From an uncultured Planctomycetia bacterium (lineage in GTDB: Bacteria > Planctomycetota > UBA8108), in assembly GCA_964615885.1 (NCBI GenBank), contig CAZTRG010000317.1, positions 233-64,232 on the forward strand: a DNA stretch of 64,000 nucleotides. Reading direction: 5' to 3'. The position numbers were made by a program, and so were the translations under genes. Numbering within the stretch: the stretch's first letter is position 1; every line of letters starts with the position of its first letter. A model generated the notes under the pieces. That model was not told the DNA's origin and did no database searches. It saw nothing but the letters and a program-made list of their open reading frames with translations. Shown piece by piece: positions 26,564 through 31,018 of the stretch.

Positions 26564-29500
26564 ATGTCGATGCGAAACAGGCTGGGTGTCCTGGTTACAG
26601 CAGGGACCCTGTTCATCTCGGGTTTTGCTTTCTCTCTCATGGCCGAGGACGCAGCCGTCCTGGTCGCGCCCCGGGAGATTTTTTCCGGGGGCAATTCCGC
26701 CCTGACGTTGACGACCTTCAATGCCCAGACCCGGCAGCCGGTTTCGCGCCGGGCCATCGTCCGGCTTCTCGATGGCAACCAGATCGTGGCCGGCCTCTTC
26801 GATGGGCTGACGGGCCCCGATGGCCGGGTCCATGTCTCCTTCCAGGTGCCGGACATTCCCGGCGGCAGCTACCGTTTCGAGGCACAGGTCAGCCGTGTTG
26901 AGGCGGCCCTTGAGCTCGACACGATGGTTTCGAAGGCCCCGGCAATCCTGGTCGAGACCGACAAGCCGATCTACAAGCCCGGCCAGACCATCAAGGGTCG
27001 GATCCTGCTGGTCGATAATTCTCTGCGCCCGGTGCCCGGCGAGGTAGAGGTCAGCTTTCACGATGCCAAGGGTATCCGGATCGACAGGCGCTCCCTTGAG
27101 GCCAACGAATTCGGGGTGGCGCCCTTCTCCCTGGCGCTGGCCACGGAGGCCAACTTCGGGACCTGGAAGGTCAAGGCCCGCTCCGGGGATGTGGAGAGCA
27201 TCCGCGATGTCCGGGTTGAGAAGTACACCCTTCCGCGCTTTAACCTCGCGGCCGAGTTCCCCCGCAGCTGGACCCTGGCTGCCCAGGAGGTCGAGGGCAG
27301 GGTGGATGCGCGCTATTTCTTTGGACGCGCGGTCGAGGGGACCTGCTATATCTCCGCGAGCAGGTACGTTGGTGAATGGCAGGAATACGCCTCCATCGAA
27401 GGCCAGCTGGAGGATGGGCTGCTCAGCTTTACCCTGCCGCCGGTTGATTTTGTCGCCGGCGCCCCAGAGGGCGGTGGGCAGGGGTCCATCACGCTCGACA
27501 TCGATGTTACCGACTCAACGGGCCACACGGAATCGATCAGCGAGATCCTGTCGGTGGTAGAGGCTCCGATTGTTATAGGCCTTGTGCCCCGGGCCGCCAC
27601 GCTCAAGCCGGAAATCGTTGCCAGCCTGGTGGTGACCGCCTCGACTCCCGACGGCGCCCCGCTGAACGCCTCCGTTCCGACAACGATCACCTTCAGCGAT
27701 TCCAGCGGGCAGGAGCTTGAGACCCTGCAGCGGGATGCCGAGGTGCTTGATGGCAGCGCCGAGCTCAGCTTCACCCCGCCTGCCGACACCTTCTTTGCGG
27801 CGGTCGAGGCATCCGCGGTTCGCGATGGCTACCGGGCGAGCGCCTCCACCCAGATAGGCGGCTCCTATTCCCTCGGCGGCAGCTACCTGTCGATCTCACG
27901 CTCCGATGCATCCTCTCCGGCGAGCGTTGGACAGCGGGCGGCTTTTTCTGCTGTTGCAACCCACGCCTCCACCATCTATTACGAGGTCTACAGCGGTGGG
28001 CGCACGGTGCTGTCGGGCTATACCGAGGATGCAGATTTCAGCTTCACGGTAACGCCTGAGATGGCCCCCAAGGCAAAGGTGGTTGCCTATTCCCTGAGCC
28101 CGACCAACGAGGTGGCGGCAGACAGCATGGTCCTCGAGGTGCTGCCAGGCTCGAGCATGGAGATCCAGGCCGCCTTCGAGCGCGAAAGGGTCAAGCCCGG
28201 AGATGCGGTCAGCGTCACCGTCGATACCGGACGGCCGGGGCGAGCCCTGGTCGGTCTCTCGGTTGTGGATGAGTCCGTTCTCGCCCTGGGCAGGAGCCGC
28301 CTGCACCTGGCGCAGGTTTTCGCAGAGCTCGAGAGCCGCTTTCTCGAACCCCAGGTCCAGGTTCTCGACGGCGGTGGCGGCCCCGGGCTCATTGACGGGC
28401 CGTTTTTCGGTGGCGGATTCCGGGGCGGCGGGCCGGCAGTTCCGGCCAGCACTGGTGCGCTTGATGTGCTCGAGGGCGCCGGGCTGGGCGTCGCCGCCAG
28501 TGACAACATAACGGTTCAAAGAGGACGGGAGTTCCAGCTCTGGCGCTGGGACGATGCGGTGGACTTTGATGGAGGCCCCTTCCCCATGCCGGCGCCTCCG
28601 GACCTGGCGCTCGAAGAAGCTGCGGGCCCGGAAGCCCCGGCCGGAACGCCCAGCGAGGCGGTCCGGGTGCGCCAGTATTTTCCCGAAACCTGGGTCTGGG
28701 AGCCGATGCTGATTACCGATGACCGCGGGCGGGTCACGGTTGATCTCGAGGTGCCGGACAACATCACCGGCTGGAAGCTCTCTGCGGTTTCCAGCTCGGC
28801 TGCAGGGATCGGTTTTGCAGAGGCGGAGCTGACTGCCTTCCAGGAGTTCTTCGTTGATCCCTCCCTGCCCTACGAGGTTACCCGTGGCGAGGAGTTCCCG
28901 GTCAAGGTCGATGTGTTCAACTACCTTGATTCCGCCCAGGTGGTAACGCTGAGTTTCGGTGACGGCGACTGGTTCGAGCTCCTGGGAAGCCAGGGGGCGG
29001 AGCTTACGGTTCCGGCCGGCTCAGCCCAGGCCGTCTACTTCCCGATCCGCCCGCTTGAGATCGGCGAATTCAACATCTCGATTACGGCACGGGGTTCGAA
29101 GGGTGCCGACGCGGTACAGAAGTCGATCAAGGTGATCCCGGAGGGGACACCTGCGGAGCAGGTCTTCAACGGCGTGATCGAGGCCGGCCGGGTTGAATTG
29201 CTGGAGCTGGGCTTCCCCCGCGACGCCATCTCTGATTCAGAGAGGGCCTACCTGAACATTACCCCCAGCCCGGTGGCGCAGACCATGAACGGCATCAGCG
29301 ACCTTCTCCAGATGCCCTACGGCTGCGGCGAGCAGAACATGATCTTCCTGGCTCCGGACATCGAGATCCTCAAGTACCTGCGCGAGGTGGGTGAGCTCAA
29401 CCCCGAGATTCGCGCCCAGGCCGAATACTTCGTCAACACCGGCTACCAGAAAGAGCTGACCTACCAGACCGATGATGGCGGCTTTGCCGCCTTCGGAGGG

Positions 29501-31018
29501 CCAGAGGGAAGCCTCTGGCTGAGCGCCTTCGTGCTCTCCACCTTCTCCGGTGCCCGGGAGGTGCGGGACATCGATGAGGGCGTGCTTGCCCGTTGCGCCG
29601 GGATGCTGATCTCCCGCCAGCGTGCCGACGGGTCCTTCACGACCGATGATTTCCTCATCCACCAGGAGATGGATGGCGGGCTCGATAATGCCTACTCGAT
29701 GGCAGCCTATGTTACCCGGGCACTGGCAGAATATGCCGAGGGGATCGAGGTGCCGCCCGGCGTCGCCGCAGCGATTGAGAGGGCAGCCGGGTACCTCGTC
29801 AGCAACCGTGCCCAGGTGAACCGCGATGCCTACCCTCTTTCGATTGCAGCTGTTGCGCTGCTTTCAGTTCCCGGCTACGAGCAGGCGGCTGAAGAGGTTG
29901 TCGACCGCCTGGTGGACCTGGCAATCAGCGAGGGCACCGGCATCCACTGGCAGCCCTATCCGGTTGAAACGACCGGCTATGCGGCCCTGGCCCTGCTCGG
30001 CTCCGGCCGTCCACAGGCCGCTGCAGCTATTGACTGGCTGACCACCCAGCGCAACTCGCTCGGCGGATATGGCGGCTCAACGCAGGACACCGTTGTTGCG
30101 ATCCGCGCGCTCTTTTCTGCTGCGCGAACGGTCCGCAGGGATCTTGAGCTGACCCTGGAGCTTCTCGCCGGCAACACGGTCCTGGAGACGCTGGTGGTGA
30201 CCGAAGCGAACTTTGACCTGCTGCACAGCTTTGAGCTTCCGCTTGAGGATGCCCCCCTGCGCCTGCGCGCAACCGGGGACGGCTCCGTTGGGTTCCAGGT
30301 GGCACGAAAGTATCACGTTCCGGATGACCTGCTTCCTCCGCCCCGCGATATGACGATCGAGGTGGACTATGACAGCGAGGGTATCGAGGTCGATGAAATC
30401 CTCGACGCGACCGTTCGTCTGAATTACACCGGCGCCAAGGAGAGGACGGGCATGGTGATTGCAGACATTGGCATTCCTACGGGCTTTGCAACGGTGGGGT
30501 CGAGCCTGAGTGCCCTGGTCGATGCGGGGGTCGTCAGCCGGGTCGACCTGGCCGGGCGCAAGGCGGTCTTTTACCTTGATGCCTTGAGGCGCCTCGAGCC
30601 GGTTGAGTTTACCTTCCGGATGAGGGCGCTCTACCCGGTTCGTTCCGAGGGGCCCGTCAGCAGGGTTTATGAATATTATGATGCCGAGGTGCAGGCCTAT
30701 CACTGCCATCTGCCGGTGCTGGTTGCCGAGCCAGAGGTTCTCCGGGTAAGTTTCGTCAGGGGGGACACCAACGGCGATGCGTCCCTCGACATCTCCGATG
30801 CGGTTGCGACCCTGAATTACCTCTTCCTTGGAGGGGAGAACAACCGGGTGGCCTGTGAGGACGCAGGAGATGTTAACGACGATGGCCTCCTTAACATAAC
30901 GGACCCGGTCTACGCGCTGGCCTTCCTCTTCCAGGGAGGGTTGCCGCCGGCTGAGCCCTTCCCGCAGGCGGGTCTCGATGAGACCGAGGATGGGCTGGAC
31001 TGCCTGGCCGCCCAGTAG
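26564..31018 (+). CDS. Alpha-2-macroglobulin / thioester-containing protein (CD109/C3-like) with C-terminal dockerin-like domain
   Basis: 1484 aa. Signal peptide. ETDKPIYKPGQ (MG2), VRQYFPETWVW, PDNITGW, PYGCGEQNM thioester (29321-29335), IHQEMDGG, STQDTVVA, A2M receptor-binding-like GMVIADIGIPTGF..VYEYYD, FVRGDTNGD dockerin. Confidence 0.93.
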   Translation: MSMRNRLGVLVTAGTLFISGFAFSLMAEDAAVLVAPREIFSGGNSALTLTTFNAQTRQPVSRRAIVRLLDGNQIVAGLFDGLTGPDGRVHVSFQVPDIPGGSYRFEAQVSRVEAALELDTMVSKAPAILVETDKPIYKPGQTIKGRILLVDNSLRPVPGEVEVSFHDAKGIRIDRRSLEANEFGVAPFSLALATEANFGTWKVKARSGDVESIRDVRVEKYTLPRFNLAAEFPRSWTLAAQEVEGRVDARYFFGRAVEGTCYISASRYVGEWQEYASIEGQLEDGLLSFTLPPVDFVAGAPEGGGQGSITLDIDVTDSTGHTESISEILSVVEAPIVIGLVPRAATLKPEIVASLVVTASTPDGAPLNASVPTTITFSDSSGQELETLQRDAEVLDGSAELSFTPPADTFFAAVEASAVRDGYRASASTQIGGSYSLGGSYLSISRSDASSPASVGQRAAFSAVATHASTIYYEVYSGGRTVLSGYTEDADFSFTVTPEMAPKAKVVAYSLSPTNEVAADSMVLEVLPGSSMEIQAAFERERVKPGDAVSVTVDTGRPGRALVGLSVVDESVLALGRSRLHLAQVFAELESRFLEPQVQVLDGGGGPGLIDGPFFGGGFRGGGPAVPASTGALDVLEGAGLGVAASDNITVQRGREFQLWRWDDAVDFDGGPFPMPAPPDLALEEAAGPEAPAGTPSEAVRVRQYFPETWVWEPMLITDDRGRVTVDLEVPDNITGWKLSAVSSSAAGIGFAEAELTAFQEFFVDPSLPYEVTRGEEFPVKVDVFNYLDSAQVVTLSFGDGDWFELLGSQGAELTVPAGSAQAVYFPIRPLEIGEFNISITARGSKGADAVQKSIKVIPEGTPAEQVFNGVIEAGRVELLELGFPRDAISDSERAYLNITPSPVAQTMNGISDLLQMPYGCGEQNMIFLAPDIEILKYLREVGELNPEIRAQAEYFVNTGYQKELTYQTDDGGFAAFGGPEGSLWLSAFVLSTFSGAREVRDIDEGVLARCAGMLISRQRADGSFTTDDFLIHQEMDGGLDNAYSMAAYVTRALAEYAEGIEVPPGVAAAIERAAGYLVSNRAQVNRDAYPLSIAAVALLSVPGYEQAAEEVVDRLVDLAISEGTGIHWQPYPVETTGYAALALLGSGRPQAAAAIDWLTTQRNSLGGYGGSTQDTVVAIRALFSAARTVRRDLELTLELLAGNTVLETLVVTEANFDLLHSFELPLEDAPLRLRATGDGSVGFQVARKYHVPDDLLPPPRDMTIEVDYDSEGIEVDEILDATVRLNYTGAKERTGMVIADIGIPTGFATVGSSLSALVDAGVVSRVDLAGRKAVFYLDALRRLEPVEFTFRMRALYPVRSEGPVSRVYEYYDAEVQAYHCHLPVLVAEPEVLRVSFVRGDTNGDASLDISDAVATLNYLFLGGENNRVACEDAGDVNDDGLLNITDPVYALAFLFQGGLPPAEPFPQAGLDETEDGLDCLAAQ
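30752..31018 (+). repeat. Dockerin-like module copy 4
   Basis: FVRGDTNGDASLDISDAVATLNYLFLGG..CEDAGDVNDDGLLNITDPVYALAFLFQGGLPPAEPFPQAGLDETEDGLDC. Confidence 0.87.

Follow-up and report, generated by a model that had tools for sequence, protein, structure and literature searches.

Bacterial macroglobulins have been treated as proteins of the YfhM kind, which differ in structure from their animal counterparts and were probably acquired from animals, and the origin of the family has been placed in early animals (PMC13069473, PMC9156758). Among the animal members, CD109 is described as a covalent protease inhibitor that is anchored to the cell surface at its C-terminal end and released on cleavage (PMC12927315), and A2ML1 as a monomeric protease inhibitor whose catalytic His forms an acyl-imidazole and allows conjugation through hydroxyl and amine groups (PMC9156758). 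In archaea, homologues of alpha-2-macroglobulin (A2M) and thioester-containing proteins (TEPs) with macroglobulin (MG) and immunoglobulin-like (Ig) domains, a thioester domain (TED) and an intact CxEQ motif were described by Makarova and colleagues, who proposed a role in conflict or immunity (PMC8416519). Here we describe a gene from an uncultured marine Planctomycetia bacterium, located in a DNA stretch of 64,000 nucleotides (hereafter the window; contig CAZTRG010000317.1 of assembly GCA_964615885.1, positions 233 to 64,232). The gene lies at 26564..31018 on the + strand, and an earlier reading of the DNA letters (the original prediction) had proposed that it encodes an animal-like thioester protein with a complement C3-type His and a dockerin tag. 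The encoded protein, P0001, has the architecture of animal CD109, A2ML1 and A2M, consisting of an MG ring, a bait, a CUB-TED unit and MG8, and by its sequence it belongs to a wide prokaryotic clade, designated clade A, which covers Planctomycetota, Acidobacteriota, Omnitrophota, Dehalococcoidia and archaea.

The coding sequence is a single open reading frame (ORF) with an ATG start, 1484 residues plus stop and zero internal stops, and its GC content (0.63-0.64) matches that of its flanks. All strings quoted in the original prediction, PYGCGEQNM, DGSFTTDDFLIHQEMDGGL, FPETWVW, VETTGYAALA, WLTTQRNSLGGYGGSTQDTVVAI and VYEYYD, were found in the translation. Using a Pfam scan (E <=0.01), six families were detected, all on the + strand: MG2 (residues 130-207; PF01835, 71.9 bits) and MG3 (residues 220-280; PF17791, 34 bits), which together occupy 26951..27403; the bait-region domain A2M_BRD (residues 452-575, 27917..28288; PF07703, 78 bits); A2M (residues 709-796, 28688..28951; PF00207, 93.3 bits); TED_complement (residues 904-1183, 29273..30112; PF07678, 219.8 bits, E 6e-65, profile positions 12-309 of 312); and A2M_recep, the MG8 or receptor-binding domain (residues 1294-1378, 30443..30697; PF07677, 55.1 bits). 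The MG2, MG3, A2M_BRD and A2M matches all exceed the Pfam cut-offs. Neither an anaphylatoxin nor a C345C/NTR domain is among these six families, and an NCBIfam scan assigned no family to P0001. At the N-terminus, a Sec-type signal peptide is predicted by eye at about residues 1-27 (26564..26644, +), where two Arg precede a hydrophobic stretch that has no Cys. The whole protein contains only 6 Cys.

When P0001 was compared with known macroglobulins, the animal proteins gave much the higher scores. Human A2M (357 bits, E 2e-105) and human CD109 (352.5 bits, E 4.9e-104 over the whole protein) were matched best, followed by human A2ML1 (326 bits), mosquito TEP1 (251 bits) and human C3 (246 bits, below A2M and CD109). 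In BLASTP, E. coli YfhM scored 49.7 bits (23% identity over 291 residues), and the YfhM-type protein of the window's own genome scored 58.9 bits. All solved-structure matches of the whole protein were animal TEPs among the best 60 of 80, and with the TED as the only query, 51 of 51 solved-structure matches were animal TEPs and none was a bacterial A2M. P0001 is also colinear with human A2M (residues 121-268 to 95-245 and 701-1376 to 704-1431) and therefore has no extra N-terminal domains. The Pfam scan found no bMG family in P0001, whereas E. coli YfhM has bMG1, 2, 3, 5, 6 and 10, and its TED scores 33 bits on TED_complement versus 220 for P0001. From the bit scores, the absent bMG domains and the TED matches, P0001 is, judged on its sequence, of animal type as proposed and not a YfhM-type bacterial macroglobulin. 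Two further features named in the original prediction, the lack of a lipoprotein signal and of an adjoining pbpC, were likewise borne out: the first Cys is residue 261, so that there is no lipobox, and the only pbpC-like gene of the genome (Transgly and BiPBP_C matches) lies on contig C262, another contig than P0001, while yfhM adjoins pbpC in E. coli. The genome's own YfhM-type macroglobulin (C131:4006-10131, +; locus L090) is a 2042-residue frame with bMG3, bMG10, Big_5 and a CAEQ motif, and it is likewise not located beside the pbpC-like gene on C262.

The reactive positions of the animal proteins are found in P0001 at the expected places. The predicted thioester-forming motif Cys921-Gly-Glu-Gln924 (29324..29335, +) forms part of GCGEQ at residues 920-924, and His1033 (29660..29662, +), 112 residues after Cys921, stands where C3 and CD109 have their catalytic His; both codons are where the original prediction had put them. 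In printed TED alignments, His1033 stands opposite the His of CD109 and opposite an Asn in human A2M. For a 36-residue piece around His1033, the best match among solved structures was human C3d, in a gap-free alignment in which His1033 falls on position 1126 of C3 (chain of 1663 residues). We take this position to be the catalytic His, which has the number 1104 in mature C3. The human C3 string given for comparison in the original prediction agrees with this gap-free alignment, and His1033 does align with the catalytic-position His of C3 and CD109.

These positions are also highly conserved in the homologues. A protein collection clustered at 90% was searched with residues 700-1400, and the best 120 of the 567 matches, which have 44-100% identity, were used together with the window protein. 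GCGEQ is present in 121/121 of these proteins, and the H of an H-x-[ED]-[ML] motif about 112 residues further on was seen by eye in every printed row. In an alignment of 43 clade-A sequences, C-G-E-Q is invariant, and the His column is conserved at >=90%. Across the groups that were placed in the trees described below, His occupies this column in 12/12 rows of subclade A1, 9/9 of subclade A2, 14/15 animal rows, 6/8 clade-B rows and 0/2 YfhM-type rows. P0135, one of the 43 clade-A rows, has GCGEQ and no H in its printed His segment, which shows that the His was lost at least once within clade A. These data bear on the view that P0001 is a structural or binding protein in which the thioester is unformed or unused, such as a surface shield or a protein that binds carbohydrates through the alpha/alpha-toroid of its TED. 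The thioester of P0001 is predicted from its motif, and complement C5 is a family member that lacks the thioester (PMC9156758). However, the invariance of GCGEQ and of the plug motif described next, together with the nearly invariant His, points to selection on the reactive machinery, and we consider an unused thioester very unlikely.

The bait region was also located in P0001. A variable, Gly/Pro-rich, bait-like region (residues 596-700, 28349..28663, +) lies in the interval from the bait-region domain to the A2M domain, where the alignment with human A2M is interrupted between two blocks. Its core at residues 603-699 (28370-28660), the very interval at which a bait-like region had been predicted, contains 34% Gly plus Pro, compared with 15% in the whole of P0001. 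In 33 close homologues, residues 596-700 are the most variable part of the protein, with an identity to the window protein of 0.36 and 16% gaps versus 0.63 elsewhere, and the variability is greatest in the final 50 residues before the plug (identity 0.29, gaps 22%). Directly after it comes the plug motif R703-Q-Y-F-P707 (28670..28684, +), part of an R-x-Y-F-P-E-T-W motif that has its aligned counterpart in human A2M and is invariant in the clade-A alignment; R701, R703, F706, P707, E708, T709, W710 and W712 are each invariant in the 43 sequences. In the animal proteins, R-x-Y-F-P is the plug whose release starts the conformational change (PMC9156758).

Residues 700-1484 were modelled with AlphaFold2 using 43 aligned sequences, giving a mean predicted local distance difference test score (pLDDT) of 86.1 and a predicted template modelling score (pTM) of 0.72. 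In the model, the TED is all-helical, and the tail is helical as well. The best fold match was native A2ML1 (TMq 0.73), followed closely by native CD109 (TMq 0.72; 29% identity in the C-terminal half) and the native A2M monomer (TMq 0.72), and native C3 and C5 (TMq 0.67-0.72) and native TEP1r (TMq 0.68) were also matched well. In contrast, induced A2M (TMq 0.41) and activated C3b (TMq 0.30-0.32) superposed poorly, so that MG7, CUB, TED and MG8 have the closed native arrangement in the model. There was no bacterial A2M among the fold matches listed for this model.

Far from being a singular oddity, P0001 belongs to a large family of prokaryotic proteins. Named records among the best 120 homologues belong to Planctomycetota, Acidobacteriota, Phycisphaerae/Sedimentisphaerales and Anaerobaca lacustris, and many of these proteins are labelled 'CD109 antigen' by the JGI pipeline. 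When one genome per species was searched, 108 prokaryotic stretches were found to encode a relative, and their record titles further name Omnitrophota, Dehalococcoidia, Methanosarcinales, Halobacteria and Micrarchaeota. An exhaustive search of representatives returned 12,475 clusters at E <=1e-3 and 2,540 at E <=1e-30. Within Planctomycetota, the gene is patchy: in a sample of 301 genomes, matches with >=57% identity occur in 7, namely the window's own genome, all 4 of the 4 others of its genus and 2 of its order, and 4 genomes have matches at 33-34% identity. Below about rank 28 of the exhaustive search, the matches are dominated by a second large prokaryotic group, clade B (proteins P0144-P0265), whose members have 1500-1900 residues, are cysteine-poor, carry the thioester motif GCFEQT[ST]S and show 31-37% identity to the query. 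The three clade-B proteins that were scanned with Pfam contain the same animal-type families (TED 164-174 bits), and one of them scores 254.6 bits against human A2M versus 41.7 against YfhM. In clade B the His is inconsistently kept, and many N-termini resemble, by eye, anti-sigma/zinc-finger membrane anchors.

For the phylogeny, three trees were built on the A2M-to-MG8 region: a FastTree tree of 72 rows (tree 1), a careful IQ-TREE analysis of 43 of these rows (tree 2) and a quick IQ-TREE search of 46 rows, 31 prokaryotic and 15 animal-like (tree 3), the latter two under LG+C20+F+G4 with posterior mean site frequencies (PMSF). Tree 1 omits P0230 (scrambled tandem matches), P0200 (truncated) and the near-duplicates or fragments P0003, P0123, P0124, P0149, P0191 and P0251; tree 3 omits P0269, P0381, P0352 and P0339 (split, tandem or partial matches) as well as P0139 and P0207. 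The animal rows are all CD109-like or A2M-like and comprise no C3-, C4-, C5- or insect-TEP-type rows. Among them are P0190 (678.5 bits with human CD109, and 59-60% identical to 'CD109 antigen-like' proteins of the sponge Sycon ciliatum, the closest relatives that carry a name), P0130, which is a record of the fish Danionella, P0207 (753 bits against human A2M), and named placozoan, coral, mollusc, bryozoan, amphioxus and fish proteins. All three trees agree on the branching order, with the YfhM type far out, then clade B, then clade A together with the animals, the last two being grouped with support of 99 to 100/99. The branches to the outgroup reach about 4 changes per column, which is very long; the amino-acid composition of several rows is unusual, and the bootstrap of tree 2 is unsettled (correlation 0.974).

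In every tree, the window protein falls outside the YfhM clade and sits in subclade A1, which contains Planctomycetota, Acidobacteriota, Omnitrophota and others. The animal rows form a clade of their own that excludes it (100/99 in tree 2, 99 in tree 3), and the sister group of this clade is subclade A2 (Dehalococcoidia, Methanosarcinales, Halobacteria and others), with support of 99, 100/99 and 99 in trees 1 to 3. The trees thus place clade A outside the sampled animal diversity, and they fit the inter-domain transfer or deep TEP lineage that the original prediction had suggested. The alternative that P0001 is a recent acquisition from an animal, or an assembly contamination, with no adapted bacterial function, would agree with its high similarity to animal TEPs and with the literature view of bacterial A2Ms as proteins of animal origin (PMC13069473, PMC9156758, citing Budd et al. 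2004). However, a 64.5-kb contig carries the gene amid bacterial genes of equal GC, the gene order is kept in related metagenome-assembled genomes (MAGs) and the gene is present in 4/4 sampled genomes of the genus, its relatives occur in the 108 prokaryotic stretches across several phyla, and the protein has few Cys, a lineage-typical tail and a position outside the animal clade. On this evidence, a recent animal source is scarcely credible.

The relation between clade A and the animals was further examined with approximately unbiased (AU) tests of a single prokaryotic clade A. With 5 animal rows, such a clade was not rejected (log-likelihood difference 5.4, p 0.405), and with 15 animal rows it was rejected (log-likelihood difference 33.8, p 0.0167). 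We tentatively regard it as likely that the animal proteins arose from within prokaryotic clade A. A larger proposal, which we put forward tentatively and hold to be possible rather than probable, is that the animal TEPs (CD109, A2M and by extension complement) descend from a clade-A prokaryotic gene that passed to the animal stem, and that the prokaryotic proteins, which would have possessed the bait, the thioester and the catalytic His beforehand, would be a surface-held, protease-triggered covalent defence, a bacterial forerunner of complement-like tagging. If true, such a descent from prokaryotes to animals would reverse the usual view, attributed to Budd et al. 2004, that bacterial A2Ms came from animals (PMC13069473, PMC9156758). 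The ancestral family member was proposed to be CD109-like and to have arisen in animals, with no sponge member reported (PMC9156758, 2022); in contrast to this reported absence, public records hold three 'CD109 antigen-like' proteins of the calcareous sponge Sycon ciliatum (P0271-P0273).

Beyond MG8, P0001 ends in a dockerin-like tail (residues 1386-1484, 30719..31015, +) with two Asp/Asn-rich loop-helix repeats, which matches Pfam Dockerin_1 below threshold. A crude dockerin regular expression, which gave 23 ORFs, was replaced by a phmmer search with the P0001 tail against all stop-to-stop frames of the 4.37-Mb genome, and 150 ORFs were found, in 101 of which the tail ends <=15 residues from the stop. 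On the window's contig there are five such ORFs, including P0001, and the other four (2-3643, 3682-7239 and 44588-49324 on the - strand, 12064-14412 on the + strand) carry lectin, malectin, endonuclease/exonuclease/phosphatase, CotH and lamin-tail domains; Dockerin_1 scores 22.5 bits in one same-tail protein of the window. Among the homologues, the tail is present in 45/120, and the others stop just after MG8 or have longer extensions, which makes it a lineage-wide tag added to the thioester protein, outside the family core. Across the genome, it seems to mark secreted proteins as a common tag. The only cohesin-like matches of the genome, all sub-threshold, are in a 1086-residue frame on C25 (loci L087 and L088), which itself also ends in the dockerin-like tail, and in a 246-residue frame on C335 (L086).

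The gene is flanked by a divergent 171-residue gene upstream and by a convergent glucuronate isomerase gene (uxaC) downstream, and a sulfatase gene is also nearby. A 255-residue ORF immediately upstream, at 25783-26550 (+), a potential operon partner, was dismissed as probably spurious, since its frame is only 30-44% conserved in relatives; the 171-residue frame at 25843-26358 on the minus strand is conserved at 49-65%, versus about 84% for the flanking genes. With the upstream + strand ORF poorly conserved and the minus-strand frame better conserved, the thioester gene appears to stand alone. By eye, the 171-residue frame looks GAF-like. In two marine metatranscriptome runs from two studies, 0.09 and 0.08 of the gene's words were present, and six metatranscriptome contigs (151-268 bases) fell inside the P0001 gene and one in uxaC, with 0-5 differing letters (spans 27583-29640 and 31422-31500). 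These matches are consistent with expression in the sea, although RNA libraries can carry DNA, and the parts of the gene without coverage are uninformative.

With moderate confidence, we propose that P0001 is a secreted, monomeric protein of the CD109/A2ML1/A2M type that acts as a surface-held, protease-triggered covalent trap. In this mechanism, a protease would cut the exposed, fast-evolving bait (about residues 596-700), by which the conserved R-x-Y-F-P plug would be freed and the protein would rearrange. The buried Cys921-Gln924 thioester would then become exposed, and His1033 could convert it to an acyl-imidazole that reacts with hydroxyl and amine groups, so that P0001 would become covalently attached to the attacking protease, or to anything within reach, which would be hindered. 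The dockerin-like tail after MG8 may keep P0001 at the cell surface, as the glycosylphosphatidylinositol (GPI) anchor does for CD109, and from there the protein could protect the envelope from foreign proteases, together with the many other secreted proteins that bear the tail. We favour a protease trap because the bait is hypervariable, C3-specific domains are lacking, and the tail parallels the C-terminal anchoring of CD109; that the gene is kept in 4/4 sampled genomes of the same genus also counts for it.

The same architecture could, however, serve a tagger similar to complement or insect TEPs, or a covalent adhesin, in which the activated thioester bonds to hydroxyl-rich surfaces such as polysaccharide particles, cells or phages, and the tail links them to the cell. 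Such a tagger would suit the presence and conservation of the C3-type His, the lectin and malectin domains in other same-tail proteins of the window, and the adjoining glucuronate isomerase and sulfatase genes, which fit a polysaccharide lifestyle; insect TEPs of the same architecture, moreover, are believed to be complement-like (PMC9156758). The original prediction had taken the His as a mark of surface-attaching opsonins as opposed to protease traps, but this distinction did not hold, as the inhibitors A2ML1 (PMC9156758) and CD109 (PMC12927315) both carry it, and the His therefore does not separate a trap from a tagger. In addition, P0001 has no anaphylatoxin or C345C domain and there is no sign of a dedicated convertase, the hypervariable bait is what is expected of a broad protease bait and not of one specific activation site, the synteny with sugar genes is limited to close relatives, and the tail is absent from 75/120 homologues. 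We therefore regard a tagger or adhesin as rather unlikely.

Several points nevertheless weigh against a surface-held protease trap. First, the evidence on clade A comes from sequences and a model, and the His-containing loop (model residues 331-341) is the least confident part of that model (pLDDT <50). Second, insect TEPs are thought to be complement-like opsonins in which inhibition was not shown (PMC9156758), and since they share the architecture of P0001, architecture alone cannot separate a trap from a tagger. Third, bait residues 603-699 contain 0 Lys and 4 Arg, so that the proteases which would cut there are hard to predict. Fourth, the proposed display through the dockerin is plausible, but the tail scores 20.3 bits against Dockerin_1 (E 6e-4), below the cut-off of 22.9, and the three matches to cohesin (PF00963) found in the genome are all below threshold (22.3, 19.3 and 18 versus 24.1 bits). 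Finally, the flanking gene order is kept in close relatives only, and no conserved adjoining protease or partner gene was found.

The main interest of the finding is evolutionary and mechanistic. In contrast to the view of bacterial macroglobulins as YfhM-like proteins, the full animal architecture is combined with an invariant thioester motif and a C3-type His in a large and mostly uncultured prokaryotic clade that includes archaea. As this clade branches next to the animal proteins and possibly around them, with clade B and the YfhM type further out, the origin of complement-type proteins becomes a testable question. In addition, these simple, nearly cysteine-free bacterial proteins can be used for studies of the thioester trigger mechanism, and bacteria, too, may have a covalent surface defence that proteases trigger.

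Compared with the known systems, P0001 resembles human CD109 (8s3o, 9fx2) in domain order, GCGEQ, aligned His and native fold. The likeness extends to an anchoring device that follows the C-terminal MG8, and CD109 is a protease-triggered covalent inhibitor (PMC12927315); CD109 differs in having a GPI anchor and furin processing instead of a dockerin-like tail, and P0001 in having only 6 Cys and a place outside the animal clade. With human A2ML1 and A2M (7q1y, 7von, 6tav), P0001 shares the bait position and the plug motif, and its best sequence match is A2M and its best fold match A2ML1. A2ML1 uses the same His, whereas human A2M has an Asn at this position and is a tetramer (PMC9156758), and both are soluble plasma or epidermal proteins without an anchoring tail. 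Complement C3 (C3d 1c3d and others; whole C3 9rf3) shares the thioester, and the His segment of P0001 is closest to C3d in the PDB, but P0001 is without the anaphylatoxin and C345C/NTR domains and its overall score with C3 is lower than with A2M or CD109. E. coli YfhM (ECAM) and the bacterium's own C131 protein belong to the same superfamily and share CxEQ (CLEQ and CAEQ), MG2, A2M_BRD and A2M, but they have no His at the aligned column and give low BLASTP scores. Gram-positive internal-thioester adhesins are surface proteins that bind their targets covalently through a Cys-Gln thioester, but their fold and architecture are unrelated, without an MG ring, bait or protease trigger.

In a full-text literature search of limited coverage, no description of clade A was found, and an earlier description is possible. 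The nearest published work is that on the archaeal TEP homologues with an intact CxEQ, and clade A too contains MAG records labelled Halobacteria and Methanosarcinales; the passages on these homologues name no C3-type His, no clade-A bacteria and no sister relation to animal TEPs (PMC8416519). In conclusion, P0001 is a His-bearing thioester protein of animal architecture from a wide prokaryotic clade, fused to a lineage-specific dockerin-like tag.

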